A stretch of 64,000 nt of DNA from a virus. The DNA is taken from IMG/VR virus record IMGVR_UViG_3300045988_176633. The stretch is one strand, 5' to 3'. Under the pieces are notes generated by a model, which had not been told where the DNA came from, did no database searches, and was given only the letters and a program-made list of their open reading frames with translations. Every line of letters starts with the position of its first letter. Positions within the stretch are counted from its first letter, which is position 1. Below are positions 7,124 through 56,550 of the stretch, piece by piece. A program made the translations under genes and the position numbers.

Positions 7124-8574
7124 ATCACAGTGACTTCTTGAGTTTCTTTCTTCTTACCCTTACGTAGTTTATCCTTTCTCTCAGGTTTATCGGCAGTCGT
7201 TGATATAACTTCGGAACTATCATTGTATAAAGCCATAGTACGCTTACGATTATAGAACCTACCACGACCATAATCAGTAGCGATAGAAAAGATTTCTTGA
7301 CTACTCTTGTAATCACGAAGTTTGTCAACAAAGATCCTACATTTCTCATCTTTCTTCTCTTGCATTGTAATATTTCCAGTAAATACAAATGAATAAGGCT
7401 TCACAAGAGTTCTATCACCTTCAGTATTAGAACGGTCTATATGTTTCATTTCATTATTCCAGACATCCATAGGTACATCACCTGTTTGTGTAGCTGTTAT
7501 ACCAACCATTTTAAATTCGACACAAATATCTTTAAATAATTGTGAACATTTCTGTAATCTAAACTTAGTAAATTCTGGATCATTGTCTATCTTCTTGTTT
7601 ACACCAGTCATTAGAAGATCTAACGAATCGACGATCAATAGTTGTGGAAAATGACCATATACTTTTTGATATTCGATACATAGATTTCGAATATCAACCA
7701 TTGATGCTTGACCGAATTTTTCAAATCCATAGATATCAATATCTTGACCAAAAGATTTCATATCTCTTAAAGTTTTCATGATCTGTTTTTCATCTTCTTG
7801 TTTTAAAAGACCTTTTTTGATGTCTATGTAACTTTGATTTGTCCACATTTGATCGTATTTGTCTGTACAAGCATCAACACCACCTTCTAATTGTATGTGT
7901 AGCACTGAAATGCTTTCAAGTGCTGCTGCATATCCATGCCATTTTAATACGGTTGATTTTCCAACACCAGATCTCATAATCCACAATACCGTATCTCCTG
8001 GATCTGCGCCACCATAACTAATATCATCAAGACGATCAATTCCCAAAGAAACTTTATTTTGGACTTTAGCGAGCTTATTTTCATCATATCTCTTTTTCAT
8101 CCTTTCTTGAAATCCTTCAAATACTCGAATAAATTTTCCACCAGTCTTTCGAAGTGATATTTCTAATATTCTTTTACTTTCTTCTGCATTGACTTTAATC
8201 GCTTCATCTCTTTTACCTTCTTCGTATAAATCATGAACCTTTTTACTAAGAAGTTCAAACTCAGTCTCGCGAATAAAAGATTCTAGTTGATCAATAATTA
8301 ATTCTTTGTCAACTAAACGAGCCTTTTTAATTTCTTTGATTGATTCTTGAACAGAATCATTATCAGCATATTTCTGAGCAATAACTCCCAAAGAAGGTGT
8401 TACTTCTTTCCCAATGAATTGTTCGACAGCTTCTTTCAATAGAAACTTATAACCGACCCACTCTTTAGGAATTAATTGATAAGTCATATGACCCGAAACC
8501 ATTCTCATGATATTCCCATCAATGAACATCAATTTGAATAACTCTGCCATAAAATTTTCATTCAACTTTCTCAT
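7120..8574 (-). CDS. replicative DNA helicase (DnaB/RecA-fold family)
   Basis: Walker A RSGVGKST and Walker B LLIVDSLDLL. 484 aa. Adjacent to the primase. Confidence 0.7.
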   Translation of the reverse strand: MRKLNENFMAELFKLMFIDGNIMRMVSGHMTYQLIPKEWVGYKFLLKEAVEQFIGKEVTPSLGVIAQKYADNDSVQESIKEIKKARLVDKELIIDQLESFIRETEFELLSKKVHDLYEEGKRDEAIKVNAEESKRILEISLRKTGGKFIRVFEGFQERMKKRYDENKLAKVQNKVSLGIDRLDDISYGGADPGDTVLWIMRSGVGKSTVLKWHGYAAALESISVLHIQLEGGVDACTDKYDQMWTNQSYIDIKKGLLKQEDEKQIMKTLRDMKSFGQDIDIYGFEKFGQASMVDIRNLCIEYQKVYGHFPQLLIVDSLDLLMTGVNKKIDNDPEFTKFRLQKCSQLFKDICVEFKMVGITATQTGDVPMDVWNNEMKHIDRSNTEGDRTLVKPYSFVFTGNITMQEKKDEKCRIFVDKLRDYKSSQEIFSIATDYGRGRFYNRKRTMALYNDSSEVISTTADKPERKDKLRKGKKKETQEVTVI

Positions 8575-11366
8575 ATCGTGTTTATTTGAACCGTTATATG
8601 ACTATCTTCACGAAGACTATTAATCGCTATGAATGAGCTCATACAAATATCGTCATGAGCACCAACAGCTTCTAATTTACCTCTGTCACTTCTAAAAGTA
8701 ATAGAAGAGAATTCACCAAAAACAATCTTCACCATATCTCTTGTTGGTCCTACTGCATATGGTATTTTTATTTGACCTCTTTCAAACATTGCCGAAAGAC
8801 TTGGTAAACCAGTATGAAGATCCTTCTTATTGCCTTCTGTTGTTGTAAAGGTCTCAATGTTTTTCAAACCTCTTTCCCTTGCTAGTCCACTTAAAATACT
8901 TTGAAAACCATTAGCTTCACATACAATTTTATTGGGTTTGAATAAAGTATTAAATAATACAATTTTATCAACTTGCTCATTGTGACTCATTCCTTTCTGT
9001 CTATGGATCGCTATCAAATAATAATTATCCATAAAATCGATCCCCCATACTGTGTAAACTGTATAGTCTGCACCGATATTACCAGAAACTGCAAAATCAC
9101 AACCAACAACAACCCTTTGTAATTTAAATGGAAAGTAATCAATGGTATCTGCAAAAGAAATATTTTCCATCCCAACTGTCGATCTCATTAAAAACTCATA
9201 AGGGAAAATGGTACTACTATCTGCAATAGGAACTACTAAGTATTCACGACTAAATACCATTGTACCTAACTCATCTTTTTTCTGAATAATATCATCAAAA
9301 GTATATCTATCTGGAGCAAGAGGACGTCCATCTGGAAATATTATCGGATACTCAAAGACTGCAAAACGTTTATCAGCTTTAATAATATTATAAAGTTCAT
9401 TAGGAGCAGTTGAATATGGTGTACCAGAAATCAAGAAATACCCATAAGGTTCAACAATGGGACTGATTGTCCCTCGAAAAGTTTCTTTTAATTTTTCTCT
9501 CTGTTCATCACTATAAATAGAACTTTCATCTGGCATATCATCAACTATAGCTGCACCAACATGTAAACCACGAATCATAGAATCTTTACCACGAACATGT
9601 AATATTCCTCCGTTTTCAGTTTCAATCATCGTCTCTCCTAATTTCGCTTTTTTATTAGGATTAAGTTTGTTACTTAAAATTGGATTTGTCTCTATTTCTT
9701 CAATGATTTTCCCAACGTGAACCTTAGCAAGAGTTATCATATTAGTAATCAGAGCGGTTTCCTTTCGATTCTTATTATCAATCGTATCACCAGCATAAAA
9801 AATTGGTTTTGTATAACTATATAATCTCCATAATGGGAATGCGTAAGCAAACTCATAACTATTATGAACAACAGTCCCATCTGATAATAAAAATTTATGA
9901 TCTCCATCTAAAGAAAAACCATAATAATCACCTTTGCCAACTGGAGTTATTGATAAACTACTTCTACTAAAATCTTGAATTTTCTCAATCTTTAGACATT
10001 TCTTTCTTTCGATCTTAGTAGGAATCGTGTCGATATCTCCAGAAATATTACATTGATATTGGATATTACCTTTTAAATCATATTTTTTACCATTTGTTTT
10101 TAATGTTGTACTAACAACTCTTTTTCTAACTGAAACACATCTAAATCCTAAAGATAAAGCTAATTGTCTAACATCATTTATTAATCGCTCATTTGAATTC
10201 GCAAAAATAAATGACTTTCCTCCATTTTTCTTAGTCTTCTCTAAAGAACCGTCTGTATCGATAAGACCTGCTAACAATTGAAGTCTCTGTTGTCGAGAAC
10301 TTCTCATATAAATATCTGGAATATGTTTATTTCTAAGAACATTTAACTTTTCGAGATTTTCATTAAGAAAATTTCTTTTTGATCCAGGAATATTTACAAT
10401 ACATGAATATAATTCTTTTTGATGAAAAGAACAAAATCTTCTTTTGTGAATCCCTCCCAATCTATCAGCATACTGATCCAAATAAAGACAAATCTCTGGA
10501 TCAATTGTAGTTATAACTTGATTATGAGAATTTCCATCACCTAACCATAATCCTAAAAAATAAGGTTCTATAGAAAGAGATTTTTCAGGAAGATCCCAAC
10601 CCTTAACTCTATATCCATAGATCTTTTTATATCTATATAACCATCTTTGAGGAATTTTTTCAACTGGAATCTCCTCTTTACAAATTTCTCTTCCTATATA
10701 TTTTTTACCTTTCGAACCATGATCAATATATTTTTCTTTATCCCATTGAATACAAACCAAATGACCCTCATTTACACAATAATCCTTTGCATAAGTCTGA
10801 TGAATTTTATACATAGGTGCTTTACCTCTATGCAATTGAAGAACTTTCCTTGGTGTTGAATCTGGTCCCATAACTAAATCACCGACTTTGACGTCTTGAA
10901 CTTTCTTTAGAGATCCATCATACATAACCACTAACTCATTGAGACTCATACATTTCCCAGAACCGCGACTACAAAGATAACTAGACCAAGGAAATAATTG
11001 AGTTAAATTCCCCCATTCTAAATTTCTCCATCCCATCATAAAATTAGATAAGACAGTCGCACAAAAATAATTGAAAGACAATATTCTCAATCTCTCATCC
11101 ATAGCTGCAGCTAGATTGTCAATGTACGAAAGATTTTCAGTATCTAACGATCTACCGAAATTCATTGCCATATCAGTTTGATTAACAATCTCTGTTAGAA
11201 GTTTATCTATGTCCTCAGAATAACCTTCTAACAATTGATTGATCGAATGTGCAGGCAATCTTTCAATTATATCGTTTGCCGCAGAATATAACCTCCTGTT
11301 TTGTAAGAGTGTAAATTTGCTAGCTGGTTTATCTTGTTCAGTCCAATCTTGTTGTTTGATTATCAT
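8571..11366 (-). CDS. terL: terminase large subunit interrupted by an intein
   Basis: Walker A is reconstituted as SRGSGK|S across the intein. Walker-B-like AAIVDDMPDE. RNaseH-like nuclease start VVGCDFAVSGNIGADYTVYTVWG. The extein totals 567 aa. Confidence 0.85.
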   Translation of the reverse strand: MIIKQQDWTEQDKPASKFTLLQNRRLYSAANDIIERLPAHSINQLLEGYSEDIDKLLTEIVNQTDMAMNFGRSLDTENLSYIDNLAAAMDERLRILSFNYFCATVLSNFMMGWRNLEWGNLTQLFPWSSYLCSRGSGKCMSLNELVVMYDGSLKKVQDVKVGDLVMGPDSTPRKVLQLHRGKAPMYKIHQTYAKDYCVNEGHLVCIQWDKEKYIDHGSKGKKYIGREICKEEIPVEKIPQRWLYRYKKIYGYRVKGWDLPEKSLSIEPYFLGLWLGDGNSHNQVITTIDPEICLYLDQYADRLGGIHKRRFCSFHQKELYSCIVNIPGSKRNFLNENLEKLNVLRNKHIPDIYMRSSRQQRLQLLAGLIDTDGSLEKTKKNGGKSFIFANSNERLINDVRQLALSLGFRCVSVRKRVVSTTLKTNGKKYDLKGNIQYQCNISGDIDTIPTKIERKKCLKIEKIQDFSRSSLSITPVGKGDYYGFSLDGDHKFLLSDGTVVHNSYEFAYAFPLWRLYSYTKPIFYAGDTIDNKNRKETALITNMITLAKVHVGKIIEEIETNPILSNKLNPNKKAKLGETMIETENGGILHVRGKDSMIRGLHVGAAIVDDMPDESSIYSDEQREKLKETFRGTISPIVEPYGYFLISGTPYSTAPNELYNIIKADKRFAVFEYPIIFPDGRPLAPDRYTFDDIIQKKDELGTMVFSREYLVVPIADSSTIFPYEFLMRSTVGMENISFADTIDYFPFKLQRVVVGCDFAVSGNIGADYTVYTVWGIDFMDNYYLIAIHRQKGMSHNEQVDKIVLFNTLFKPNKIVCEANGFQSILSGLARERGLKNIETFTTTEGNKKDLHTGLPSLSAMFERGQIKIPYAVGPTRDMVKIVFGEFSSITFRSDRGKLEAVGAHDDICMSSFIAINSLREDSHITVQINTI
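9861..10952 (-). mobile_element. intein with LAGLIDADG homing endonuclease (TerL residues C139-N502)
   Basis: Starts with Cys (TGT at 10952..10950) directly after GSGK. Hint N-block is CMSLNELVVMYDGSLKKVQDVKVGDLVMG. LAGLIDADG blocks are YFLGLWLGDGN and LLAGLIDTDGS. Ends VVHN (AAT at 9863..9861) with Ser at +1. Confidence 0.85.
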
Positions 11367-42740: not shown

Positions 42741-44255
42741 TTATAAGCCAATCGTGCCAATGTTAATAACACGACATATTTTAGCCGGCTGATACAATAC
42801 AGGAGTACCGTAATTCAAGATCGCGAATCGACGACTTGGAGCTGTGATAGCGAAATCCATTTTCATCGTATCAGCAAATTGTAAGTACTCATTGATTTGA
42901 TCATCGTTGTAATAAACTAACGCAGACTTCGTACCAGCAATGAAACGGTTACGATCACGTACTTTACCTGCAGCAGCTCCGTCCCAACCATTAGCTAGTT
43001 GATTTACTGGAACCTCAAACAACGGATAGTATTCTGTCGTAGCATTTAATGCTGCATCTTTAACCGTTCTATAGATAACAAAACAAGTCGGTTGATAAGC
43101 GCCTCCAACACCAGCAGTAAACTGCAAATCAACTGACTGAGAAGCTGTAACAGCTAAAGCTACCTTTGAAGTCAAATTCAAAGGAGCTGATTCACCATAA
43201 CGATTCTTAGCTGTCACTAAGTAACCATAAGAACCAGCATGTTTACCAAACATTGTCTTAGTATCGTTGTTTACTGTAGCAGCAGGAGCTGCACCAACAA
43301 CCGGTATTGTAGGAGCCTTTGGAGAAGAAGCAGTTTTTCCAACACGGATCGATTTACGAACGTCGAAGAACTTGTCATTCTTAACAGCTACCTTACCAAA
43401 TTGAGTTGTAATATCGTTAACTGATTGACCCATCGTTGCACCAGTAACAGAATCACGCATACCAACGATAACTCGTTTTGACTCATGGAACAATTTAACG
43501 TAATCGTTAAATACCTTAGGAGAGGAAACAATACGATCAATATAACCGTTATAAACGTTTACAACAGAATCAGCGGCATCTTCAACTAAAGAGTCATTCA
43601 ACACATTTCCATCTGCATTGATAACAGCAGCAGAACCGAAGTAATCGTCCAACAATTGCTCAGATGTCTTACCTTCGTAAGAACCACCGTCAGCTTGATT
43701 CACACCTAACATATGTTGACGGAAAATACCATCAAATTGTTCAGGTACAGCAGCAGAGTCAGCATCAATCAAACGTTGATCCAAAATCGTCTGCAATAGG
43801 ATCGTCTTATTCTGAACCTCCTTGGTATACATATTCATACCGCCAGCCAATTTAGCTAACATAGCAGGATGAGTTACTTGTCCTGTTACACCCATAAATT
43901 TGGTGATTACAGACTTACGGATATATTGAGAATCAGTCTCTTCTGGAGTCTCACCTTCCATGTTAAAGATTCCAACCTCTTCACCATATTTGTACAATTG
44001 ATTGTACTGATGAACAGTGTTGTCGATCTTATGTTTAGGCATCTCATTCAAAACAACCAACTGATTCAAACGGTTACCTAATACCTTCAACACTGAATCT
44101 AATGATTCAACTTTCAAACCACCACCATTGCTGATCTGGTTATCATATTGCATACCAGTCTTTAAACCGGCTTCCATTGCTTTCAGGATCTCTGCAGCGT
44201 CAATGTTTTCCAACATACCGGAAACTGCACCACCTGTATAATCATAAAGTTCCAT
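42741..44255 (-). CDS. major capsid protein
   Basis: 504-aa ORF directly after the protease and an acidic scaffold-like gene, and followed by a terminator. The call is positional. Confidence 0.65.
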   Translation of the reverse strand: MELYDYTGGAVSGMLENIDAAEILKAMEAGLKTGMQYDNQISNGGGLKVESLDSVLKVLGNRLNQLVVLNEMPKHKIDNTVHQYNQLYKYGEEVGIFNMEGETPEETDSQYIRKSVITKFMGVTGQVTHPAMLAKLAGGMNMYTKEVQNKTILLQTILDQRLIDADSAAVPEQFDGIFRQHMLGVNQADGGSYEGKTSEQLLDDYFGSAAVINADGNVLNDSLVEDAADSVVNVYNGYIDRIVSSPKVFNDYVKLFHESKRVIVGMRDSVTGATMGQSVNDITTQFGKVAVKNDKFFDVRKSIRVGKTASSPKAPTIPVVGAAPAATVNNDTKTMFGKHAGSYGYLVTAKNRYGESAPLNLTSKVALAVTASQSVDLQFTAGVGGAYQPTCFVIYRTVKDAALNATTEYYPLFEVPVNQLANGWDGAAAGKVRDRNRFIAGTKSALVYYNDDQINEYLQFADTMKMDFAITAPSRRFAILNYGTPVLYQPAKICRVINIGTIGL

Positions 44256-44286: not shown

Positions 44287-44988
44287 TTAACGCACGAACT
44301 TGACGTTTTTACTGTCATACATATAACGAGCAAGATTCTCACCTACAGTCTCAGCTTCAGGATTGGTTAAATATGCAAAAACATCGTCACCAATTGATTT
44401 CATCAAAACTTCATCGTCTTGAACTGAATCAATAGCTTTTTCAATAAGAGTACGTGCTAAAGGCCGTTGTTTTACAATATTTACAGTAATCTTACCGTTA
44501 TCGTCTTTCATAGTGCCGATAGATTTTTGCAAGAAAGTAGCGTTATCAAGACCTTCACTTCTAAAAGGAGTTGGTTGAGCACCGATCGCTTCAATAGATT
44601 TCCTAAGAGGTTCTATCTCCTCCTTGATAGCCTCTTTAAAAGCCTCTTTCATTTCAAAACCGAAAGATTTCATAAGATCTCTGTTGAAACTTTTTTCAAC
44701 TTTTTCTTTAGATTTCTTCTTCTTCTTACCTTTTTCTTCAATGTCCTCGTCGAGATCTTCGATATCGTCATCATCTTTGTCCTCGTCTTCTTCCAAATCT
44801 TCAATATGCTTTTCGTCGTCTACGACATTCTTTTCTTCATCCTCTTTAGAATGCTCCATTTCTTTTTCAGTTTTAGACTTCTCAAGTATGATATCACCAT
44901 TCTCAATGGCTTTCTCTATATACTCTTCGTCAAAACCTCCATTTAAAAGAGCTTTAACTATGGATGAGTTCTTCCATTCTGCTTTCAT
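44287..44988 (-). CDS. scaffolding protein (acidic, helical)
   Basis: 233 aa with an extreme D/E/K run (EDLEEDEDKDDDDIEDLDEDIEEKGKKKKK). Lies between protease and capsid. Confidence 0.55.
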   Translation of the reverse strand: MKAEWKNSSIVKALLNGGFDEEYIEKAIENGDIILEKSKTEKEMEHSKEDEEKNVVDDEKHIEDLEEDEDKDDDDIEDLDEDIEEKGKKKKKSKEKVEKSFNRDLMKSFGFEMKEAFKEAIKEEIEPLRKSIEAIGAQPTPFRSEGLDNATFLQKSIGTMKDDNGKITVNIVKQRPLARTLIEKAIDSVQDDEVLMKSIGDDVFAYLTNPEAETVGENLARYMYDSKNVKFVR

Positions 44989-45037: not shown

Positions 45038-45814
45038 TTACAAAATTATTCTTCCAGATTTTTTCAAAAAGTCATCTAAAACCTTCTTAGATATGAACCC
45101 CTTTTGAAATCCTTTATAAAGATCCCAAAATTGTTCAACTTGAAAAGATGGACTATCCTTTACAGAAATCTTAAAATCTCTATCGATTTGAATGACTTTA
45201 CCGTTAGAATTATACTCCAATAAAATCGCTTGAGTTTGAAAATCCTTAGGACTATTAAAATCAATATCCCTTGATTTCATACTTTTAGTGATATCAACGT
45301 AAGTTGATGGATTTACCGGAGTAAATGTCAATGCTATGTTGGTAATGAGTGCTTTTGTAACTCTCTTTGGATTCTTAGGATCACGAGCCAATGCTTTGCC
45401 TTCTACAGACATACCAGGTTTTCTTGTTGAACCCGATTCTTTCATTTCTATTGCTTTATCCCAAAAAGCTCTAGCTTCTGGAGAGTTCTCCCAAAGTTTT
45501 CCTTTCACAAAAAATTTTCCATCTCTTACTTTAGCTTCTAAAGGCTCACCAATCCAAAATCGACTTTTGTTGATTGGACTTCGTGTAGGAAGATGATCAA
45601 GGTTAAATAATCCTGATTTTAGAAAACGATCGTAAATAAAACCATTAGGATCAAGAACTTCATCTTCAGCATCTTCTGTCTTATCAGATGCAAGACCAGA
45701 GAACGTCATATTCTTATAACGTTCTTCTTTAGAAAAATCTTTTTGTTTTGAAGACTTTTCAAAATCTATATCTAAATCAAGACCAAACTGAAAACAGTCA
45801 AAACTGTTATACAT
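45038..45814 (-). CDS. prohead maturation protease (HK97/S78-like)
   Basis: GLASDKTEDAEDEVLDPNGFIYDRFLKSGLFNLDHL fits the D..G......H pattern of prohead serine proteases. Lies upstream of the scaffold. Confidence 0.55.
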   Translation of the reverse strand: MYNSFDCFQFGLDLDIDFEKSSKQKDFSKEERYKNMTFSGLASDKTEDAEDEVLDPNGFIYDRFLKSGLFNLDHLPTRSPINKSRFWIGEPLEAKVRDGKFFVKGKLWENSPEARAFWDKAIEMKESGSTRKPGMSVEGKALARDPKNPKRVTKALITNIALTFTPVNPSTYVDITKSMKSRDIDFNSPKDFQTQAILLEYNSNGKVIQIDRDFKISVKDSPSFQVEQFWDLYKGFQKGFISKKVLDDFLKKSGRIIL

Positions 45815-45926: not shown

Positions 45927-46775
45927 TTAACTTAAAATATTGTCCTTTTGTTGAGAAAAAGTTTTCATCAAATGTTGCTCTAATGACTTTTTCAACGTAT
46001 TTTTACGCTCAGAAAAAGCGATGGAGCTTATAAAGGGATTGTGCCTTGCTGAGTCCATATCATTAGAATCGTCAGGTCCATTAAGTACGATCGAGCTTTT
46101 TCTTATTTTATCTTCCTTAGGCCTGCTATAGTCGAAAGAAGTTAATACCCAGATCTTGTCCCTAAAGTTGTCTTTTTCGTCATAGACCACAGTTCTCATT
46201 AATACAACTCTATATTTATCTTTGTGAATGTTAACTTTAGAGTTGTTTTCGTAAAAATTTCCAATACGACCATGTTTCAAAACATCAGAAATAATATCTG
46301 ATATTTCCTCAAGAGATTCAAAATCATCTTGTTCGATAAAATGTCTCTTCCTAATATGACGAATCCCTTTGATATCATCTCCCCAAACAATATCAATCTT
46401 ACCTAAACCTCTTCTCTCCCAAGCGCCAATAACTTGACCCTTCTTTTCCTTTAAAAGAAAATCAATGGCTTGTTTTGGTTTACCTTCGAAAGAAGAATAA
46501 TTAGTACCAAATTCTTTTAATTCCTTATAAGCATAAACCTTAGTTCTTTTTTGACCTTTAGCTAGTTTCCAACTTCCGTCAGCTTGTTTTTGATATTTAA
46601 TCCCTTTCCACTCTCGAATCTCACCAACCGCAGCTTTAGCTTTAAAGAAATCTTCTTCTAAAGATTTCTTATAAAACTCACTCAAAGATTTATTTATGTC
46701 GTCTGAATAAATAATCGCTTCAATTTCTAAAGAAGAAGCTCCTAACTTTTTCAATTTATCAATCAATCGACTCAT
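45927..46775 (-). CDS. hypothetical protein; possible barnase/EndoU/RelE-fold (PBECR-type) nuclease domain
   Basis: 282 aa. WERRGLGKIDIVWGDDIKGIRHIRKRHFIEQDDF recalls the H..(K/R)H cores seen in phage polyvalent-protein nuclease modules. This is recall only and has not been verified. Confidence 0.3.
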   Translation of the reverse strand: MSRLIDKLKKLGASSLEIEAIIYSDDINKSLSEFYKKSLEEDFFKAKAAVGEIREWKGIKYQKQADGSWKLAKGQKRTKVYAYKELKEFGTNYSSFEGKPKQAIDFLLKEKKGQVIGAWERRGLGKIDIVWGDDIKGIRHIRKRHFIEQDDFESLEEISDIISDVLKHGRIGNFYENNSKVNIHKDKYRVVLMRTVVYDEKDNFRDKIWVLTSFDYSRPKEDKIRKSSIVLNGPDDSNDMDSARHNPFISSIAFSERKNTLKKSLEQHLMKTFSQQKDNILS

Positions 46776-46789
46776 ACTCTTTTCAATAA

Positions 46790-46815
46790 AAAGAGGGAGT
46801 TGATTCTCCCTCTTT
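46790..46815 (-). terminator. rho-independent terminator
   Basis: AAAGAGGGAG / CTCCCTCTTT form a perfect 10-bp stem with a 6-nt loop, followed by TTTATTG on the minus strand. Lies 15 nt after the stop at 46830. Confidence 0.75.
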
Positions 46816-46829
46816 AGAAACTAACAAAA

Positions 46830-48971
46830 TCAGTGCATTTGTAGACGGTATTTACTCTGTTTTAGAGAGGCGAGAAAATCATCTATCCAAGATATTTCAC
46901 CATTATACTCATCTTTACCCTCAAGTTCTTTCCTGAATTCAATAGTACGATCAAATATCATTTGACAAATCTTCACCGGATCATCTTCTTCGACTTTATC
47001 TCCTTGGATCTCTCCATCTTTAAACCTACCAAACCCAGCTTGTCCAGCTTCAGCGATCTTATCTTCAAATTCTCCGACTTCTTCTGAGAGATCATCAAGA
47101 TAGACGTGTTTAGAATTATCTTCTTCTCCCCAATGAATATTTTTCAATCGAGTTTTTGCTCCTTCAATGAAATTCAAGTATTCGTTGAATACTTTCTTTT
47201 CTTGTTTTTCAGCCTTTTCTAATTCATTCTTATCACCTCCACTTATACTTTGGATGTTTATCTTACCTTCATTATTCCAATCTTGTACAACAGATTTAAA
47301 CATTTGAAGATCATCTTGATCATTAAAACGAATGATAAGATCATTTTCCTGAAATTTTGAAAGATTATCAATTTGAGATTTTCTCACATCTTCTACTTTT
47401 GAAATTGCATCCAATCTAAAAACACCTTTCTTATCATTAAACATCCAATTTTGCTCACCAAAATCCTTGGTCTTTAAAACCAATTCAACTTCCCCACCTA
47501 TTTCAAAAATCGTTTTTCGAAATGTAGCTAAAAAATCTGCAAAACGATCAATACCTATTTTTGTCCCAGAAAAATTTGTATTAAAACTTCCCCAAATAGT
47601 CATAAGTTCTGGATCTGGATCTTCTTCTACAACTACCTTAGAAGATTCTGCATTCCATTTTTCTTCTTTCTTTTTTCTTGCACCTTTGAAATCTATTGAT
47701 TTTTCGATCTCACCAACACCACTACCTTGAGGTCCTTTTGTTTTAGGATCGAGACTTTCTTTTGAAAGAACTTGTGAGTCTTCCGTATTCATTGTTTTTT
47801 CCACCTCATCCCAACTTTCAGGTAATTCTTTCTCAAGACCTAATTCCTTTGCTCTCTTACGAATCCATGCTTTAACCTCACTCTCTGGCATATCAGAAGC
47901 ACCTACAAGCCTAATCGCATCTTTTAAATCTTGACTATTACGAATAGGATATTTACCGTTTGGCATTGCTTCTCCTTTCTTAGCAAGATCTTTTCTTTCT
48001 TTATGAGAGAAATAATTCTTGTTACCTGCTTTAGAAATTTCTTCTTTATGCTTCTCACAAAAAGCCTTGAAAATCTTTTCAGAAATCTTACCTTCGACCA
48101 TGCTTTTCGCCAAATCCACGACTTCGGTAAATATAGGAGTTTTGGCTTTAACCTCTACATCTTCTACTGGTAAACCTAGGATCTTTTTAATATTATCTTT
48201 CATATCAAAGATAAACTTATAATCATCGATTTCAGTTGCAGGATCTATCCAAGCACTTCCAATTTCTTCAAATCCATCGACAACAATTAACGAAGGTGAG
48301 AACTCATCTAAATAAGTCATAAAGTAATGGATTTCAACATCACCATTATCATAAACACCTACTTCAGTTAACAAATTATCGTCTGTATCAATACCTGTTT
48401 CTTCAAACAACTCACGTCTTGCTGCAGTGCGAAAATCCTCTCCTGCATCGACATGACCACCAGGAATACACCAATCTTCTGAATAACTTCCACTTTCACC
48501 AGCTCTTTGTAAGATTAACAACTTAGAACCTCTCCAAACAAGTATATCCGCATATCTCACTTTACCACCTTGTTTGGCTTTTAAAAGGTCTATATATATA
48601 GATTTTTTAATCAGACCTTTCATCCAACTTTGTCTCATTGAATCTAAGGTCTTAATATCTTTCAAAACATCAGCGATTTCAAGGTCTTCTTCAAGAGAAG
48701 CTAAAGATTTTTCAATTTTCGTTTTTCTCTTATAAACATTTTGAAGATCTTGAGATTGTTGTTTTAAGAATGCATTAAAACAATTTTGAGCCTTTTCAAA
48801 CAACTCAACATCACCATTAGAAAGATCATTTAACTGAGCTTTTTGAAGTGAAAAGTTCTCTCCTAATTGATCAATCTCTTTATCTAGAAGGTGAAGTTGT
48901 CTTAAATTATCTCTATACTTTTGGATCTTTTCAGCCTTAGACTGAAGTCCGAATAAACTTTTGATATCCAT
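46830..48971 (-). CDS. multidomain protein: coiled coil, NUDIX hydrolase domain, C-terminal Dps/ferritin-like helical region
   Basis: Exact Nudix box GHVDAGEDFRTAARRELFEETGI (Gx5Ex7REUxEExGU). C-terminal IHWGEEDNSKHVYLDDLSEEVGEFEDKIAE resembles the Dps di-iron site pattern HW...H...D...(D/E)..AE. Confidence 0.65.
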   Translation of the reverse strand: MDIKSLFGLQSKAEKIQKYRDNLRQLHLLDKEIDQLGENFSLQKAQLNDLSNGDVELFEKAQNCFNAFLKQQSQDLQNVYKRKTKIEKSLASLEEDLEIADVLKDIKTLDSMRQSWMKGLIKKSIYIDLLKAKQGGKVRYADILVWRGSKLLILQRAGESGSYSEDWCIPGGHVDAGEDFRTAARRELFEETGIDTDDNLLTEVGVYDNGDVEIHYFMTYLDEFSPSLIVVDGFEEIGSAWIDPATEIDDYKFIFDMKDNIKKILGLPVEDVEVKAKTPIFTEVVDLAKSMVEGKISEKIFKAFCEKHKEEISKAGNKNYFSHKERKDLAKKGEAMPNGKYPIRNSQDLKDAIRLVGASDMPESEVKAWIRKRAKELGLEKELPESWDEVEKTMNTEDSQVLSKESLDPKTKGPQGSGVGEIEKSIDFKGARKKKEEKWNAESSKVVVEEDPDPELMTIWGSFNTNFSGTKIGIDRFADFLATFRKTIFEIGGEVELVLKTKDFGEQNWMFNDKKGVFRLDAISKVEDVRKSQIDNLSKFQENDLIIRFNDQDDLQMFKSVVQDWNNEGKINIQSISGGDKNELEKAEKQEKKVFNEYLNFIEGAKTRLKNIHWGEEDNSKHVYLDDLSEEVGEFEDKIAEAGQAGFGRFKDGEIQGDKVEEDDPVKICQMIFDRTIEFRKELEGKDEYNGEISWIDDFLASLKQSKYRLQMH

Positions 48972-49013
48972 GACTAACTTTGTTATAATTTTTGCACTAA
49001 ATATACGAACTTT

Positions 49014-49451
49014 TCAATCGTTTACACAAACATTATCCGCGTAATAACTATGATCACTTTCTATTTCAATAGAATAAGAAAAATCCGGAAAATTTTCCTT
49101 TGGTATTTTTAAAATAGAAGAGACTTTACCTCGTTGATTTTTTCTTAATTGTAGGAGCATATTAGGTTTAATTTTACTTACTTCTAAAGACCTACCATTA
49201 GCTAAAATAATTTTACTACTTTCGTGAATCCTATGAATCCCTTCTTCTTTGATCTTTACATCGTCTTCAAAAACAAAATAAAGATCAAAGATTTCTTGAT
49301 TGAAATCTAAGATCAAAGATTTGTTGATTGATTTTACTTTTTTGTATCTATTTTTATGAGTTAAAACCAAGTCACCAACTTTTATATCTTTTATCCATTT
49401 AGGACCATCAAAGGTCTGTATTTCTGTATAACCACTGTAAAATTGACTCAT
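49014..49451 (-). CDS. free-standing degenerate Hint (intein-like) domain protein
   Basis: YTEIQTFDGPKWIKDIKVGDLVLT aligns with Hint block A, but Phe occupies the nucleophile position. The C-terminus SHSYYADNVCVND resembles blocks F/G with HN replaced by ND. No exteins are present. Confidence 0.55.
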   Translation of the reverse strand: MSQFYSGYTEIQTFDGPKWIKDIKVGDLVLTHKNRYKKVKSINKSLILDFNQEIFDLYFVFEDDVKIKEEGIHRIHESSKIILANGRSLEVSKIKPNMLLQLRKNQRGKVSSILKIPKENFPDFSYSIEIESDHSYYADNVCVND

Positions 49452-50395
49452 ACTAAAAATTTTTTATCCCCAACTATTATTGTTACCTTTGATTTTCTCT
49501 CGACCTTAGATTTATAATCTTTAGGTGGAACGAATGTTTGCAATTTATCATCCCAAACATAATTATCTGGAATATAACGAGTTGAACAACGACAAAACGG
49601 GTGAACTGGTCCGACAACTGGTTTCCAATCCTTGCTCTTTCTACCAATATTATCACCGTTTTGAATAAGTTCTGATAATTTGAAGATTCTAGGTTTTGAA
49701 CCTGCACCTGCTGTAGTATAGAGGTTTAGGCAAAACCGACACGCTCCTGGATAAACTTCTTTGTATACTCTTGTATCTAATCCATGTTGATTGATTATCA
49801 TTTGAGCATTCCCCAATTCATAAATGTTTTGGAACTCAGTTTCGACTATCCGTCCCCAATCTCGATTCCAATCTTTCAACTGATTACCGATATTACTTAC
49901 GATACCTTGGACTGATCTTTTTTCTAAAACACCTAATTCGTGTTCTCTTTTGATTGTTGAAAGCTCTTCTATCCGACGATTTTCGACAAGATTTTTTATC
50001 TCTTGCTCTGAAACAGAATTCGAAAGGGTTTTCTTTACCCTTTCTCCCATTCCTTTGATATAAGAATAACTTCTTGTAGCTGCAGCTTGATATTCGTACA
50101 ATTCTCTTTTAGAAGGTTGTTTGTATTGTTTTCTAGCTGTGTATTGTTTTATATCTGTATAGTTTAAGGTTTGTAATTGTTTTGGCGTTAAAACAGCAGA
50201 TAACCTACCAAATAAATATGCTTGCCAATAAGGAGGGATCAATTTTAGATCTTTCCAATCAAAATGAAATTCATCGAGTACTTTCTTATCATTATCAGTT
50301 AGGAATTCTTTCCCTAAGATATCAGCGATAGTCCTAGCTAGACGATAATCTACAATCGTAAACAATCTCTGTATGTCATCTGGTGTAAAAATCAT
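49448..50395 (-). CDS. head morphogenesis protein, Mu F / SPP1 gp7 family
   Basis: ACRFCLNLY...GPVHPFCRCSTRYIP matches the conserved H-P-x-C-R-C end of the MuF domain. Lies after the portal gene, separated from it by one small ORF (50392..50595). Confidence 0.75.
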   Translation of the reverse strand: MIFTPDDIQRLFTIVDYRLARTIADILGKEFLTDNDKKVLDEFHFDWKDLKLIPPYWQAYLFGRLSAVLTPKQLQTLNYTDIKQYTARKQYKQPSKRELYEYQAAATRSYSYIKGMGERVKKTLSNSVSEQEIKNLVENRRIEELSTIKREHELGVLEKRSVQGIVSNIGNQLKDWNRDWGRIVETEFQNIYELGNAQMIINQHGLDTRVYKEVYPGACRFCLNLYTTAGAGSKPRIFKLSELIQNGDNIGRKSKDWKPVVGPVHPFCRCSTRYIPDNYVWDDKLQTFVPPKDYKSKVERKSKVTIIVGDKKFLV

Positions 50396-50595
50396 AACTT
50401 TGATTTGAGTTTAACCATTTCTTTAGTTAAATCTATTAATAAATTATCCATTTGAGTAGAGAAAATGACTTGTGCCAATCCTTCGTAACCACCTTGAACC
50501 TTAGGATAATCCATAGGATCTTTAACATGATGTTGGATATTACTGACTCCAGACATCTTCTCTACTTTCAAACCTTTTACATATTTGAGATTCAT
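50392..50595 (-). CDS. hypothetical small protein
   Basis: The track ORF starts at 50610. The ATG at 50595 makes an ATGA overlap with the portal stop and is preferred. Confidence 0.45.
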   Translation of the reverse strand: MNLKYVKGLKVEKMSGVSNIQHHVKDPMDYPKVQGGYEGLAQVIFSTQMDNLLIDLTKEMVKLKSKL

Positions 50596-52322
50596 TTTCC
50601 AGCTCCCCAATTTTCTTTGATATACTTCATAGCACTACCAAGGATTGGATTTGAAACCATTGCCTTCTCATAATTTTCATCTTCGAAATCCAAAGGATTT
50701 TCTTCTTCTCCTTCTTCATCTACTGTTTGATTGTCGACCTCTTCATTCATACCTTCACCACCGTACATTGCTTGTTGCTGCTTTGTTTGAGCTGCAGTTT
50801 GATATACTTGATTTAGAATCGTATCGGTTTCAGGATCAAAATCACGACCAGAATATTTTTTAAAAATATCTTCCATTGATACCATACCACCTTCAAGTTT
50901 TTTCTTATCAAGTTCAACTTGCTTTTCTTCATCTTCTATTTCAATACCAGTGAAAGCAAATTCAAAATCAGAATCAATCTCATCAATAAGATAATGGTTG
51001 ATAATATTCTGTAAGAAAATTAACAATGGTTTTAACCCTTTATCTCGACTATGGTTCAATCTTTCCCTTTGACCATCTTGTCCAAAGATTTGAGCTTGGT
51101 CTTTGAATTGAAAACCTAACTCAGTTGGATCAATACGATAAACCGAACATGTAATGATAAGTAGGAATTTCAACCAATCATTGAACTCCATATCCCGGTT
51201 ATTCTTTTGTAGATCAATCCATTCCAGATCAATGCCATTGATAATTGGAACTCTGTGAGAATTTGAAACACCACGCATCGTTTGTGTCCAAGCCTGTCGA
51301 AACTCATTTAAAGTCGTATTATCAATATTATTGTTTTTCACATTGATAAAACCCTTTGGTTGAGATCCTTTTGAAAAGAAATTACCATTATACTGCATAC
51401 CCCATAATATCCAGGTAATAATCTCTACAAGGGTTTCTAATTCAGAGGTACCGTAACCATTCTTATAAATGTTGGTACTCTTATTTCGAATACCATAACC
51501 CAACTCCCAAGGATAAAAAATCACATGTTCTTTAGTTGTTGGATTCTGTAGGATCATATCGTTGAATACCATACAATACCTAGGTAGATAACCTTTAAAA
51601 CGATATTTCTCCCACTCTTCTCTCATTTTAGGATCAGCACTGTCTAATAGTCGTATTAAAGATGCGTCTACAGCTCGAAACTTATTTAAATTCCAGCTTC
51701 TATCTCTAACAATTTCAAAGGCTAATTGATCCAATGTAAGAGTGTCGAAAACAATCTTTCTCCCAAAATCTTGAAATGTGTCAAATTTGTCCCATTTTTC
51801 ATTGATACCACCTTTTTCTAAGAAATCAATGATATACTCGATTTTCCTCTGTTCTTCTTTTGTAGGTTCAGTTGTTTTATCTTCAAAACGACTTTTCTTC
51901 TTTCGTATCGTAAACCCCTCTTTTTGTTCATCAAGACTAAAATGTAGAAAATTTTGGACTTGTTCAACGCGAGTATTAACAACACTTCGAATAATGAAGA
52001 TATCTCCCATCCTTCGAAGTGTTTCAAAGGATAAAGAACCGTAATATCTAGGATCTTTGAAACCTTGGCCAGTTTGATTAGCCTCATTTGGGTCGAAAAA
52101 GACAGCCTTCATCTCACTGTTTTGTCTTGAGTTTGCATCAAGATAAAGGTTTGCTTTCATGATCGCTTCAACATCATTTGAAGATACCATTTGTTGAAGT
52201 TTAGATTGTAACAATGTTGGTACAGTCTTATTCAACGCTTCGATCTCTTCAAATGAGAGAGAGGCCAGACTCTTTATTAAGTCTGGCCTTTGTGATTTGT
52301 TATTGCTTCTTTTTCTACTCAT
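50592..52322 (-). CDS. portal protein
   Basis: 576 aa with an acidic C-terminal tail. Lies upstream of the MuF-family gene and of the protease-scaffold-capsid block. Confidence 0.7.
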   Translation of the reverse strand: MSRKRSNNKSQRPDLIKSLASLSFEEIEALNKTVPTLLQSKLQQMVSSNDVEAIMKANLYLDANSRQNSEMKAVFFDPNEANQTGQGFKDPRYYGSLSFETLRRMGDIFIIRSVVNTRVEQVQNFLHFSLDEQKEGFTIRKKKSRFEDKTTEPTKEEQRKIEYIIDFLEKGGINEKWDKFDTFQDFGRKIVFDTLTLDQLAFEIVRDRSWNLNKFRAVDASLIRLLDSADPKMREEWEKYRFKGYLPRYCMVFNDMILQNPTTKEHVIFYPWELGYGIRNKSTNIYKNGYGTSELETLVEIITWILWGMQYNGNFFSKGSQPKGFINVKNNNIDNTTLNEFRQAWTQTMRGVSNSHRVPIINGIDLEWIDLQKNNRDMEFNDWLKFLLIITCSVYRIDPTELGFQFKDQAQIFGQDGQRERLNHSRDKGLKPLLIFLQNIINHYLIDEIDSDFEFAFTGIEIEDEEKQVELDKKKLEGGMVSMEDIFKKYSGRDFDPETDTILNQVYQTAAQTKQQQAMYGGEGMNEEVDNQTVDEEGEEENPLDFEDENYEKAMVSNPILGSAMKYIKENWGAGK

Positions 52323-52333
52323 AGATAAAATTA

Positions 52334-53821
52334 TTATACCCCTAATTGAGTTAAAGTGACAGTAGCTGTCTTTCCACCTTCATTTGCCGTAACAACAGCT
52401 TGACCTGTTCTTTTAGCACCTGTATTAGCCGCTGCTATTACTGAATATTCAGAAGAACCTTTTGTAAAACCTTCACCACTAACAACAGTTGTATAATCTA
52501 CTGCTATCGGTGATCCAGAATTTTTACCATTTACTTTCTTCTGTTTGTTAGAAGTGACACCAAAAACTTTTGTCTCTCCTGCTGCTATAAAACTTAAAGA
52601 CGTAAGATCTGTTGTTAAAGTGTAATCATAAGTTACTGTTGCTGCAGCTTGTGACAAATTAATCGTATCAACTTCATCACTTTCAGATTGAGTAATCGTA
52701 ACTACACCTGTTCTCTCAGATTCAGTCGTATTTTCTGTTGCTACAACATTATTACCTGTACTCTTTGAAAAACCAGAACCAGCTACTTCAAAAGAAAACG
52801 CTACATCAACTGTAGAACCGCTAACATTACCATTTAGTTTCTTTTGTTTTGTTGAAACCACTGAAAAAGATTTAGTCTCACCAGTGTTAGCAAAAGAAAG
52901 TGATGTAGGAGTGGCTGTCAATGTATAATCATAAGTGATGACAGATGCAGCTTGAGTTAAATTTACACTAACACTTTTACCACCTTCATCAGTTTGATTG
53001 ATCGTCAAAGTACCTGTTCTTTGTGTTTCACCAGGATTTTCTGTAACAGTAATATCATAACCATTATCAGTCTCTTCGTAACTAAAACCAACACCTGCTA
53101 ATTCTACCGTCACAAGGGCTTTAATAGTTTCTCCTGATGGAGTACCATTGATAACCTTCTGTTTAGTTGACGTTACATTTATCGATTTTGTTTCACCAGT
53201 ATTGATAAATGACAAACTAGAAGGATTAGTTGTAAGTATATAGTTATATGTAATGATAGAAGCCTCTTGAGAAAGAACAATATTTGAAGTTTTACCACTT
53301 TCATCTTGAGTAATTGTTAAATTACCGTTTCTAACGGTATCAGAAGGATTTTCGTTTATAGTAACTGTTCCACCTTCACTAACTGTAAAAGGTGCTTCTG
53401 TTTGAAATTTAACACTTAATGCAGTTTGATTCCCTTGTGGCTTACCATTTACATAAAGTTGTTTATAAGAAGTAACAACTGCTTCTATACTATCACCTTC
53501 CTTTGAAAATTCCAATGTTTCTTCTTGTGGAATAAGGAAGTATTTCCATTCTTCTACTACATCTACCAATACTTGAGCTTCGTCGTTTAACCCTTCTGGA
53601 TAAGAAATAAGCTGAAGAGCATTGTTCATAGCCCATTCTTTGAACGATCCAATATTGTAGATTCTACCAGGTTCAATCACTATTCCTAGTGATTCAAAAT
53701 AATCGATATCACCTACAGTATTTTCTGTCACAAAGACATTCAGTTGACTGTCAATACCATCTGTAATAACAGTCAACTGTTTTGGCTCTTCTTCATTTGT
53801 CTTGAATAAAAGTCTTAACAT
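52334..53821 (-). CDS. BACON-like / Ig-like repeat protein (possible capsid decoration or glycan-binding)
   Basis: Four ~100-aa repeats, each ending N(P/T)..(T/S).R(T/N)G.(L/V).(I/V)(T/N)Q...G(K)....(V/I).L(T/S)Q. Confidence 0.6.
   Translation of the reverse strand: MLRLLFKTNEEEPKQLTVITDGIDSQLNVFVTENTVGDIDYFESLGIVIEPGRIYNIGSFKEWAMNNALQLISYPEGLNDEAQVLVDVVEEWKYFLIPQEETLEFSKEGDSIEAVVTSYKQLYVNGKPQGNQTALSVKFQTEAPFTVSEGGTVTINENPSDTVRNGNLTITQDESGKTSNIVLSQEASIITYNYILTTNPSSLSFINTGETKSINVTSTKQKVINGTPSGETIKALVTVELAGVGFSYEETDNGYDITVTENPGETQRTGTLTINQTDEGGKSVSVNLTQAASVITYDYTLTATPTSLSFANTGETKSFSVVSTKQKKLNGNVSGSTVDVAFSFEVAGSGFSKSTGNNVVATENTTESERTGVVTITQSESDEVDTINLSQAAATVTYDYTLTTDLTSLSFIAAGETKVFGVTSNKQKKVNGKNSGSPIAVDYTTVVSGEGFTKGSSEYSVIAAANTGAKRTGQAVVTANEGGKTATVTLTQLGV
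52337..53521 (-). repeat. four tandem ~100-aa domain repeats (protein level)
   Basis: Repeats span aa 101-188, 189-292, 293-393 and 394-495. An example unit is LSF.NTGETKS..V.STKQK..NG..SG. Confidence 0.7.
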
Positions 53822-55574: not shown

Positions 55575-55844
55575 TTATTTCTTTCCTTCTAATTTTGCAA
55601 TCTCTTTCGCTTTGGGATCACGAGCTGTAGCATAAGCTCTCATTTGAACCTCTGTCATTTGGTGCTCACTAGAATTCTTTGACTTATCACCAAACTGATT
55701 GAAATTCTCACCCAATTTATTTACACGACTAACTAAACTACTTAATCTTTCAAGATCTTTTGATGATGCATCGTCTTGCCAATTATCACCATATTTATTC
55801 ATGAGGTTTAAACGTTCTTTACTGATCTCTCCAATGATCCTCAT
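55575..55844 (-). CDS. hypothetical small protein
   Basis: 89-aa ORF. An alternative ATG lies at 55802. Confidence 0.45.
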   Translation of the reverse strand: MRIIGEISKERLNLMNKYGDNWQDDASSKDLERLSSLVSRVNKLGENFNQFGDKSKNSSEHQMTEVQMRAYATARDPKAKEIAKLEGKK

Positions 55845-56550
55845 CTTTACGATCTTTGTATTGAGCCGCTGTTACCTGACGTAACAAAGGAGCTTCTTTT
55901 TTCGAGCTCTCCATCCAATCAACTTTCAAACCATTCTCCTTCGCATATTTCATTACCTTGCTAATCCTCTTTTGAGTATCGTACATAGAGGCTTGAATTT
56001 TACCATCCTTTATATGAAAGGTTTTTTGATCGATTTTTATACTTGAAGGGATTTTCTCTGAACTTTCTTCTTTATTAGTATTTTTAATACCTTTGGGTTT
56101 TAATCTCCAGCCCTTCTCGGTCTTGATATAGAGTTTTCCACCATAAGTCTTTTCTGTACCAATAGGTTCAGCTTTACGTGCTTTTTCGATAACATCGTTA
56201 TTGACTGGCAATCCAACGATACCTTTAAAACGGTTTAATGCTGTATCAGCAAACACGATTTGTTTCGATTTCATAATTGAACCAAACTCTTCTTTTTCTA
56301 AGGGTTCAATTTGACATTCACGATAATAAACTACTGATTTAACTAAATCATTATCAACAACAATCGCACGATTCAAAGAAACAAAATCAGCGGCAGCGCA
56401 TGATTTTGAAAATTCATCCATTGAATTTTGATTGTTGATGATCTCTTGATTGAATTTCAAGACTTGATCTGCAGTGAAGGTTTCATAACCATTCTTAGCT
56501 ATAAAAGCATCGAATTCCTTTTTGGTAAACTCTTTTATCGTACCATTCAT
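55819..56550 (-). CDS. hypothetical protein, paralogue of 54423..54986
   Basis: 243 aa. See the shared blocks listed for 54423..54986. Confidence 0.55.
   Translation of the reverse strand: MNGTIKEFTKKEFDAFIAKNGYETFTADQVLKFNQEIINNQNSMDEFSKSCAAADFVSLNRAIVVDNDLVKSVVYYRECQIEPLEKEEFGSIMKSKQIVFADTALNRFKGIVGLPVNNDVIEKARKAEPIGTEKTYGGKLYIKTEKGWRLKPKGIKNTNKEESSEKIPSSIKIDQKTFHIKDGKIQASMYDTQKRISKVMKYAKENGLKVDWMESSKKEAPLLRQVTAAQYKDRKDEDHWRDQ

Follow-up and report, generated by a model that had tools for sequence, protein, structure and literature searches.

MuF-toxin fusions, reportedly described by Jamet et al. in 2017, join the MuF/gp7 head protein of phages to variable toxic effector domains. A second group of composite phage proteins, the polyvalent proteins, has PBECR1 as a signature domain and a metallopeptidase, not a Hint domain, as autoproteolytic hub, and solo copies of PBECR1 encoded beside virion genes have been predicted to be packaged and injected (PMC5512222). 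Packaging has also been predicted for Nudix and ADP-ribosyltransferase (ART) proteins that are encoded within head clusters of myoviruses, or that form fusions with MuF, portal or protease (PMC9503650). Inteins, finally, are known from SPP1 gp7-family minor capsid genes of actinobacteriophages (Gosselin, Arsenault, Gogarten 2025, bioRxiv 10.1101/2025.01.02.630785), and in the classic domesticated intein, the yeast HO endonuclease, the nuclease was kept and re-used (PMC5056185). The locus analyzed here is a block of four genes at positions 45927-50395 of a 64,000-nucleotide (nt) stretch of viral DNA, IMG/VR record IMGVR_UViG_3300045988_176633, which is called the window below. In the order of transcription, the genes specify a MuF/SPP1-gp7-like minor head protein, a free-standing Hint protein, a NUDIX-Dps protein of 713 amino acids (aa) and a PBECR1 protein. 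Coordinates are positions in the window, and L001 to L097 are labels of related loci.

A preliminary description, made from the DNA letters alone, had regarded this block as a disassembled polyvalent protein. The four open reading frames (ORFs) were found where they had been placed, on the minus strand, as was the one small ORF (67 aa) behind the portal gene. The interpretation favoured here, to which a probability of about 65% is assigned, is a head block with an intein-free MuF, a type-A intein that has been liberated from MuF and is now a selected Hint gene, a NUDIX-Dps protein and an exchangeable cargo slot. The anatomy and the evolutionary origin of the cluster are well supported. Its new element is the domesticated MuF intein; the cargo class itself has already been predicted in the literature.

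The intein site of MuF and the free-standing Hint gene

The MuF-like protein (315 aa; 49448-50395, minus strand) follows the portal with the 67-aa ORF between them, and this order is kept in all related loci. Its family was assigned through orthologues, 12 of 15 of which matched TIGR01641 (phageSPP1_gp7) in an NCBIfam scan with a best E-value of 2.3e-7, and a tblastn search gave a match (2e-27) to the 'minor capsid protein' of Bacillus phage Nachito. All orthologues share an invariant CxxC...HPFCRC motif. In contrast to the MuF-toxin fusions, the window protein is a plain MuF, and the effectors are separate genes two positions downstream.

Homologues of MuF come in three size classes, and near relatives show three states of one site within the HPFCRC motif: empty, filled with a mini-intein, or filled with an intein that includes an endonuclease. 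The window carries the intein-free allele. The empty site lies between F267 (49595-49597) and C268 (49592-49594) and is written HPF/CRC, the slash marking the point of insertion. Exactly at this point, MuF of L005 contains 342 extra codons, while the flanks are 98-99% identical to the window. This insert, designated type B, starts with CYDDKTEVLT, ends with VSGN/C and has LAGLIDADG blocks inside. Further homologues carry at the same site either a type-B mini-intein of 140-173 aa or a type-A mini-intein of about 146 aa, which starts with CFNSPFIEITTFDGPKWIKDIK, holds TGNH and ends with HSYFAENVAVSN/C. The HPF/CRC site of MuF is an intein hotspot. As in the actinophage gp7 genes (10.1101/2025.01.02.630785), the intein hosts belong to the MuF family, and the relatives of the window carry mini- and LAGLIDADG inteins; that survey dealt with in-gene inteins and contained no stand-alone splicing domain beside a host gene.

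Directly after MuF the preliminary description had placed a free-standing Hint domain (145 aa; 49014-49451, minus strand), and this call held, although Pfam searches yielded only weak matches (Hint_2 1.3e-4, PT-HINT 0.016). By BLASTP the protein is 47% identical over 146 aa to the mini-intein of P0006 (E 3e-43), which is a type-A intein of MuF, and a profile search with Hint detected MuF::intein P0061 at 1e-16 along with many intein-bearing proteins. In the alignment Gln3, which follows Met-Ser, faces Cys1 of the intein, the last residue, Asp145, faces the terminal Asn, and the TxxH block, TGNH in the intein, reads HESS. Because the ends and blocks align in this way with the type-A intein, the Hint ORF is to be seen as a full-length intein in which other residues have taken the place of all those needed for splicing. 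The ORF begins with an ATG of its own, ends with Asp145 directly before the stop codon, and lacks exteins. The 59 distinct free-standing homologues have likewise had all their splicing residues replaced. Where the window has Gln at position 1, relatives show Thr, Ile or Gly, and no free Hint retains the block-B His. Judged by these residues, the product cannot splice, and the gene appears to be functional.

BIL and Hedgehog Hog domains are examples of the Hint fold outside classical inteins, in which the catalytic Cys, His and Asn are kept and the own protein is processed. The phage Hint differs from them in that it lacks the catalytic Cys, His and Asn as well as a flanking polypeptide. With HO (PMC5056185) it shares the free-standing, intein-derived gene, the inactive splicing and the maintenance by selection; unlike HO, it is a bare Hint domain without nuclease, and it lies beside its former host gene.

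In a tree rooted on type B, type-A inteins and free Hints formed one clade with a support of 100/100, in which canonical-HN inteins were basal and the free Hints were nested among type-A inteins. The polarity deduced from the sequences is from intein to stand-alone gene. A single origin of the free form was not strongly supported (63/71).

The distribution of the gene was determined by a synteny comparison of about 90 distinct loci. A free Hint gene is present in all of the about 80 in-group loci with an intein-free MuF, where it is located just before NUDIX, and in all five loci with a type-B intein in MuF. It is absent from the three loci in which MuF carries a type-A intein (L009, L011, and L094), and there NUDIX comes directly after MuF. 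In the in-group, therefore, the free Hint is missing only where a type-A intein sits in MuF. The two outgroup loci, L093 and Chryseobacterium phage MA9V-3, have an intein-free MuF and no free Hint; in MA9V-3 the gene was specifically sought. In more distant phages MuF is also followed directly by NUDIX.

The intergenic spacer in front of the NUDIX-Dps gene (48972-49013, minus strand) contains an element, TTCGTATATTTA (48998-49009), that is conserved at this place even in distant relatives. It stands behind the stop codon of the gene before NUDIX, irrespective of which gene this is: behind Hint in the case of the window, L008, and L015, and behind MuF::intein for L009, L011, and L094. The Hint ORF is thus located exactly between the stop codon of MuF and the spacer. 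A role of TTCGTATATTTA as a repeated promoter was considered and rejected, since the window contains one exact copy and copies with two mismatches are in weak excess only; it may be a gene-specific regulatory site of NUDIX-Dps.

Substitution patterns clearly point to purifying selection on the free Hint gene. The ratio of non-synonymous to synonymous rates (dN/dS) was about 0.07-0.13 where dS was unsaturated (0.35-1.4) and reached 0.3 in other pairs, somewhat higher than the values for MuF (0.05-0.09 overall, and 0.05-0.07 set against the unsaturated pairs). About 85 distinct loci, with identities as low as 24%, have an intact frame of 138-171 aa, and an exhaustive profile search of 1.8 billion proteins yielded about a dozen 50%-identity clusters of stand-alone Hint homologues. 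These data bear on the view that the free Hint is a slowly decaying, functionless intein remnant, kept only by tight operon packing. It would agree with the loss of all splicing residues and with a non-synonymous evolution about 1.5-2 times faster than that of MuF, but the low dN/dS, the intact frame at this divergence, the number of clusters and the absence of the gene precisely where an active intein is present argue against it, and such a remnant is very unlikely.

A reading that follows from the preliminary description makes Hint an effector-release module. According to this explanation, a polyvalent protein composed of MuF, Hint and effector has come apart, and Hint is the relic of its autoproteolytic release module. 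MuF, PBECR1, Nudix and ART are indeed fused to head proteins elsewhere, phrog_15528 is a family of portal-Nudix fusions, and PBECR1-ART fusions occur in relatives. However, the 47% identity links the Hint ORF to an intein of MuF itself, inside the catalytic-looking HPF/CRC motif and not at a domain boundary. A fusion of MuF with both Hint and an effector was found in no relative. About 90 loci, and the outgroups as well, have the core genes as separate units; MuF, Hint and NUDIX-Dps are unfused in all of the more than 80 related loci and do not stem from a recent fission. In the survey of polyvalent proteins, moreover, Hint is not a hub domain (PMC5512222). The disassembled protein is accordingly given hardly any credence, and the release module was abandoned in favour of an origin from the MuF intein.

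A programmed frameshift that fuses MuF to Hint was another candidate, suggested by the ATGA overlap after an A/T-rich run. It was rejected because the -1 frame contains a TAA five codons before the Hint ATG and because the junction is not constant among relatives: the window, L005, and L008 have ATGA, L001 has an overlap of 1 nt, and L095 and L097 have a gap of 12 nt. IS605-type TnpB genes (OrfB_IS605 plus Cas12f1-like TNB) are inserted in the block of some relatives (L001, 5314-6525; L022, 8022-9239; L019, 8428-9615; L067; L085). Their insertion points differ, being located before MuF, between MuF and Hint, or between Hint and NUDIX.

A tentative variant concerns the reason for keeping the domain. 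The free Hint domain that remains after splicing could serve head assembly, for instance by associating with MuF or the portal, and the excised intein would then be more than selfish. The domain could be supplied either by an active intein inside MuF or by a translationally coupled, dead Hint gene placed directly behind the MuF stop codon. Supply from either source would explain the mutual exclusion of type-A intein and free Hint. Conversion would then have happened perhaps twice, with liberated inteins stacking behind MuF. In 41 loci an extra ORF of 185-203 aa is found between MuF and the free Hint, connected by overlapping stop and start codons (for example 7951-8559 in L054, 7948-8520 in L015, 7948-8505 in L040, and 7948-8544 in L051). 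Its ends are similar to those of the type-B intein (GYKGDVEVLT versus CYDDKTEVLT; YEGKLYNI..EYALI versus YDGRIYDVE..YHTLI), but neither BLASTP nor hmmsearch nor hhalign linked it significantly to this intein (best E about 0.02 over 20 columns). An AlphaFold model of low confidence, obtained from a shallow alignment (predicted local distance difference test, pLDDT, 61.5; predicted template modelling score, pTM, 0.56), matched in the PDB almost only inteins and Hint domains, with the RadA intein as best hit (E 5.6e-3) and template modelling (TM) scores up to 0.58. In none of the five loci with a type-B intein is the extra ORF present, but it is also missing from many intein-free genomes, and strict complementarity was not borne out, since L097 has neither. 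The extra ORF may be another intein set free from MuF and placed behind it; it is a lead rather than a result.

Inteins are unusually frequent in this lineage, occurring in TerL, in the portal and, with two types, in MuF. TerL of the window (931 aa; 8571-11366, minus strand) harbours a genuine intein that includes a LAGLIDADG homing endonuclease (Hom_end_hint 1.3e-16, Hom_end 6e-9, LAGLIDADG_3 1.8e-8), and the window phage thus combines an active-looking intein in TerL with an empty MuF site. Portals of about 1000-1013 aa with a LAGLIDADG intein (Intein_splicing 4.7e-14) were detected in L030 (3763-6798) and about 20 other related loci, compared with 576 aa for the window portal.

Gene order and the NUDIX-Dps protein

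From 42.7 to 54.4 kb every gene is on the minus strand. Transcription proceeds from a BACON-repeat protein (52334-53821; four tandem repeats, Pfam BACON 9.4e-15) to the portal directly downstream (576 aa, 50592-52322; Pfam Phage_portal 5.9e-18, phrog_12 3.3e-38), the small ORF (50392-50595; 67 aa from the ATG at 50595), MuF, Hint, NUDIX-Dps (713 aa, 46830-48971), PBECR1 (282 aa, 45927-46775), the prohead maturation protease (258 aa, 45038-45814; phrog_1028 2.7e-37), an acidic, coiled-coil scaffold-like protein (233 aa, 44287-44988) and the major capsid protein (504 aa, 42741-44255; phrog_752 1.5e-50, Pfam SU10_MCP 6.4e-6). All related loci have the small ORF, of 54-83 aa, at this position behind the portal gene and before MuF. 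Neither this ORF nor the scaffold-like protein has a family match in Pfam or PHROG, and the latter was named from its composition and its position between the protease and capsid genes. Relatives have BACON proteins of 191 to 511 aa with differing numbers of repeats.

Since a tail sheath, a baseplate wedge and the large terminase are encoded elsewhere in the window, the phage is a myovirus. Contigs with an identical or 98-99% identical 713-aa protein reach about 100 kb. Relatives come mainly from human-gut viromes, and the sole isolate found is Chryseobacterium phage MA9V-3, which is unannotated and has a MuF only 35% identical to that of the window. The region is a conserved head-morphogenesis block of a myovirus lineage of about 100 kb from gut Bacteroidota.

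Of the ATGA coupling proposed for the block in the preliminary description, three junctions remain: portal/small ORF, small ORF/MuF, and MuF/Hint. The later ones are gaps, of 42 nt between Hint and the 713-aa gene, 54 nt between the latter and PBECR1, and 112 nt between PBECR1 and the protease. The strong terminator expected at the end of the block was not detected, as folding showed no significant structure after PBECR1 (z -0.23). The only terminator-like structure revealed by folding is a hairpin before PBECR1, between it and the 713-aa gene (46790-46815, minus strand; 10-bp stem, 6-nt loop, U-run; -17.4 kcal/mol, z -2.47). A consensus scan for promoters and terminators gave chance-level results and did not pick up this hairpin.

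The 713-aa protein is composed of a coiled coil (aa 12-134), a NUDIX domain (aa 136-265; 48177-48566), a helical region (aa 272-388), a variable, disordered middle part (aa 390-580) and a Dps/ferritin-like four-helix bundle (aa 581-713; 46833-47231). NUDIX was recognized by PF00293 (E 5.4e-17; 62.5 bits versus a cut-off of 21.1), and the Nudix box (GGHVDAGEDFRTAARRELFEETGI / GHVDAGEDFRTAARRELFEETGI; pattern GX5EX7REUXEEXGU) is intact and invariant in homologues. An AlphaFold model shows a long coiled coil, a Nudix fold with a pLDDT of about 80-90 and a C-terminal four-helix bundle. With Foldseek, 375 PDB matches at E<=0.001 were obtained, and the best 50 of these 375 are all Nudix hydrolases. 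The bundle helices (581-611, 620-647, 665-683, and 687-712) were also modelled at a pLDDT of about 80-90, and all 25 homologues compared share H613, W614, H622, D637, and E641. The H-15-D-4-E spacing is also seen in Escherichia coli Dps, between H63, D78, and E82. Nearly all of 1342 homologues carry NUDIX and DUF5856, with precomputed PF19174 in most, the homologue from L094 matches Pfam Ferritin (PF00210), and the 713-aa protein matches phrog_858 at 2.4e-4. By its residues and model, the 713-aa protein joins an intact Nudix hydrolase to a Dps-like bundle with invariant ferroxidase-type ligands.

The helical region carries a strongly conserved sequence, KGEAMPNGKYPIRN, with the motif AMPNGKYPI. 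Neither for this region nor for the variable middle part nor for the N-terminus of the PBECR1 protein was a Pfam family found. A highly conserved segment, KERKDLAKKGEAMPNGKYPIRNSQDLKDAIRLVG...WIKKRAKxLGL (aa 320-388; 47800-48010, minus strand), is duplicated in tandem in some relatives. The KERKDLAKKGEAMPNGKYPIRNSQDLKDAIRLVG segment was also matched in proteins from the head region of Microbacterium, Gordonia and Streptomyces phages, among them one annotated as capsid maturation protease.

As in the systems with head-packaged Nudix, ART and Macro proteins of myoviruses (PMC9503650; T4 Alt, internal proteins), the window Nudix is encoded in a late head cluster near MuF, portal and protease, and genes for ART and ADP-ribosylglycohydrolase are adjacent in relatives of the window. 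The window Nudix differs by its place between a coiled coil and a DUF5856 bundle, an architecture not found described in the literature compared.

It is also conceivable, although unlikely, that NUDIX-Dps, and perhaps Hint, is not injected and guards the phage genome from oxidative damage. A MutT-like Nudix would clear oxidized nucleotides during late replication and packaging, and a Dps-like ferroxidase would shield the DNA in the cell or the capsid, which would be useful for a phage of anaerobes passing through oxygen. The fusion of Nudix with a Dps-like bundle, whose H, H, D, and E ligands do not vary, is kept in 1342 homologues, the best target-normalised TM-scores are those of MutT-type enzymes (3hhj 0.75, 3r03 0.72), the Joint Genome Institute (JGI) name of homologues is 8-oxo-dGTP diphosphatase, and stand-alone DpsA homologues exist in crAss-like phages. 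On the other hand, the JGI names result from automatic annotation, the lowest Foldseek E-values belong to NadM ADP-ribose pyrophosphatase, and the ART and ADP-ribosylglycohydrolase in the neighbouring slot of relatives indicate NAD/ADP-ribose biology.

PBECR1 and the variable slot

The 282-aa protein had been suspected to contain a BECR-fold nuclease. PBECR1 (PF18809) is its one recognized domain, matched over profile positions 1-102 of 104 (E 3e-11; 44.2 bits versus a cut-off of 27.6) and located at aa 118-218 (46122-46424). H140, H145, T212, and S213 are invariant among six homologues with 35-60% identity and agree with the active site that has been described for PBECR domains, a His together with Thr/Ser; RNase activity of PBECR1 is a prediction even in the defining paper (PMC5512222). 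The suspicion was thus confirmed at the level of the domain, and the RNase is a predicted one.

The place between the hairpin and the protease gene is filled differently among relatives. In most loci nothing is found there. PBECR1 alone is present in the window, L013, and L014, whereas in some relatives PBECR1 is joined in one protein to a second, C-terminal domain of about 550 aa, for a total of 777-886 aa. The C-terminal domain also occurs alone (555-648 aa), and in L008, L015, and L048 an ADP-ribosylglycohydrolase gene (PF03747, 1e-27) comes after it. Other relatives have MuF_C-domain proteins or a 344-aa protein without assigned family. A profile of the C-terminal domain matched Vip2/C3-type ADP-ribosyltransferases in the PDB at 2.4e-7 to 6e-6 (Lmo0066 2.4e-7, Vip2 1e-6). 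The tail of the window PBECR1 protein aligns to the linker of the PBECR1-ART fusions up to the junction. PBECR1 is one member of a set of exchangeable cargo genes that occupy a hypervariable slot behind the terminator-like hairpin.

With the PBECR polyvalent proteins (PMC5512222) the window protein shares PBECR1 with the conserved His and Thr/Ser, its location among virion genes, the fusion to ART in relatives and a prediction of packaging and injection that is drawn from context. It differs by the absence of a metallopeptidase, ArdC-N or other hub and of a fusion to MuF or portal, and by its location in a variable slot. Like the genes of polyvalent proteins, the block is encoded among virion and packaging genes, between portal and prohead protease; several effector domains in one polypeptide (2-15 in polyvalent proteins) are seen only in relatives, in the form of PBECR1-ART.

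Near its N-terminus the PBECR1 protein contains the motif GEIREWKGIKYQKQADGSW (46566-46625, minus strand). The general form, GE(I/K)(R/T)xWxGxxYxKxxxGxW, has no Pfam family and precedes unrelated modules, namely PBECR1, ART and a window protein encoded at 55819-56550 (motif at 56104-56160, minus strand). It was also detected in slot proteins of L009, L015, L048, and L051-L053, is inserted in some NUDIX-Dps relatives, and has a degenerate counterpart at the C-terminus of the Nudix protein of MA9V-3. It might conceivably be a shared targeting, docking or packaging element.

Proposed function and significance

In the mechanism proposed for the favoured interpretation, MuF, Hint and NUDIX-Dps would be made together with the head proteins and built into the procapsid near the portal. 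MuF and Hint would be translationally coupled, which would link their amounts, and the Hint protein would now have a non-catalytic role in partnership with another protein, probably MuF. The Nudix domain and PBECR1, the predicted RNase, would act on host nucleotides or RNA at or soon after DNA entry, and the Dps-like domain would bind or protect DNA. Packaging and injection of these proteins are thus predicted rather than observed.

A number of points weigh against this interpretation. The MuF assignment in the preliminary description stands for the orthologues and not for the window protein itself, which has no Pfam or PHROG match even at permissive E-values and meets TIGR01641 only at the HPFCRC motif with an E-value of 3.4, below every curated threshold of the hidden Markov models. 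Similarly, of the coiled-coil/NUDIX/ferritin-like assignment the first parts were borne out by PF00293, AlphaFold and Foldseek, while DUF5856 (PF19174, Dps-like) was below the cut-off in the window (1.7e-4; 23-26 bits versus 34.6), and a phmmer search of the PDB with the Dps-like domain found nothing meaningful. The Foldseek matches are spread over NadM ADP-ribose pyrophosphatase, MutT, RppH and GDP-mannose hydrolase and do not single out a substrate. In the tree of MuF, the extein, lineages with a type-A intein are interleaved with free-Hint lineages, and recombination or repeated conversion must therefore be assumed; one origin followed by recombination is indistinguishable from several origins. 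The favoured interpretation also requires that the intein DNA moved past the 47-codon C-extein. Finally, a search for a close relative in culture whose virion proteome is known was negative, MA9V-3 being the nearest isolate.

In literature searches, no other selected, stand-alone and nuclease-free splicing domain was found that lies beside its former host and alternates with an active intein. The cluster adds a large lineage of gut phages to the predicted head-encoded Nudix/ART/PBECR cargo, together with a Nudix-Dps fusion and a defined exchange slot. The contents of this slot (empty, PBECR1, ART plus glycohydrolase, PBECR1-ART fusion) form a natural series for tests of packaging and function. 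Inteins are usually viewed as pure parasites, and in the sole textbook case of domestication, yeast HO, it was the nuclease that was re-used. Here, a bare splicing domain has been kept for a long time by selection beside its former host gene, in strict alternation with an active intein. Two questions thereby become testable: can an excised intein have its own function, and in what way does an intein escape from its host gene and still persist?

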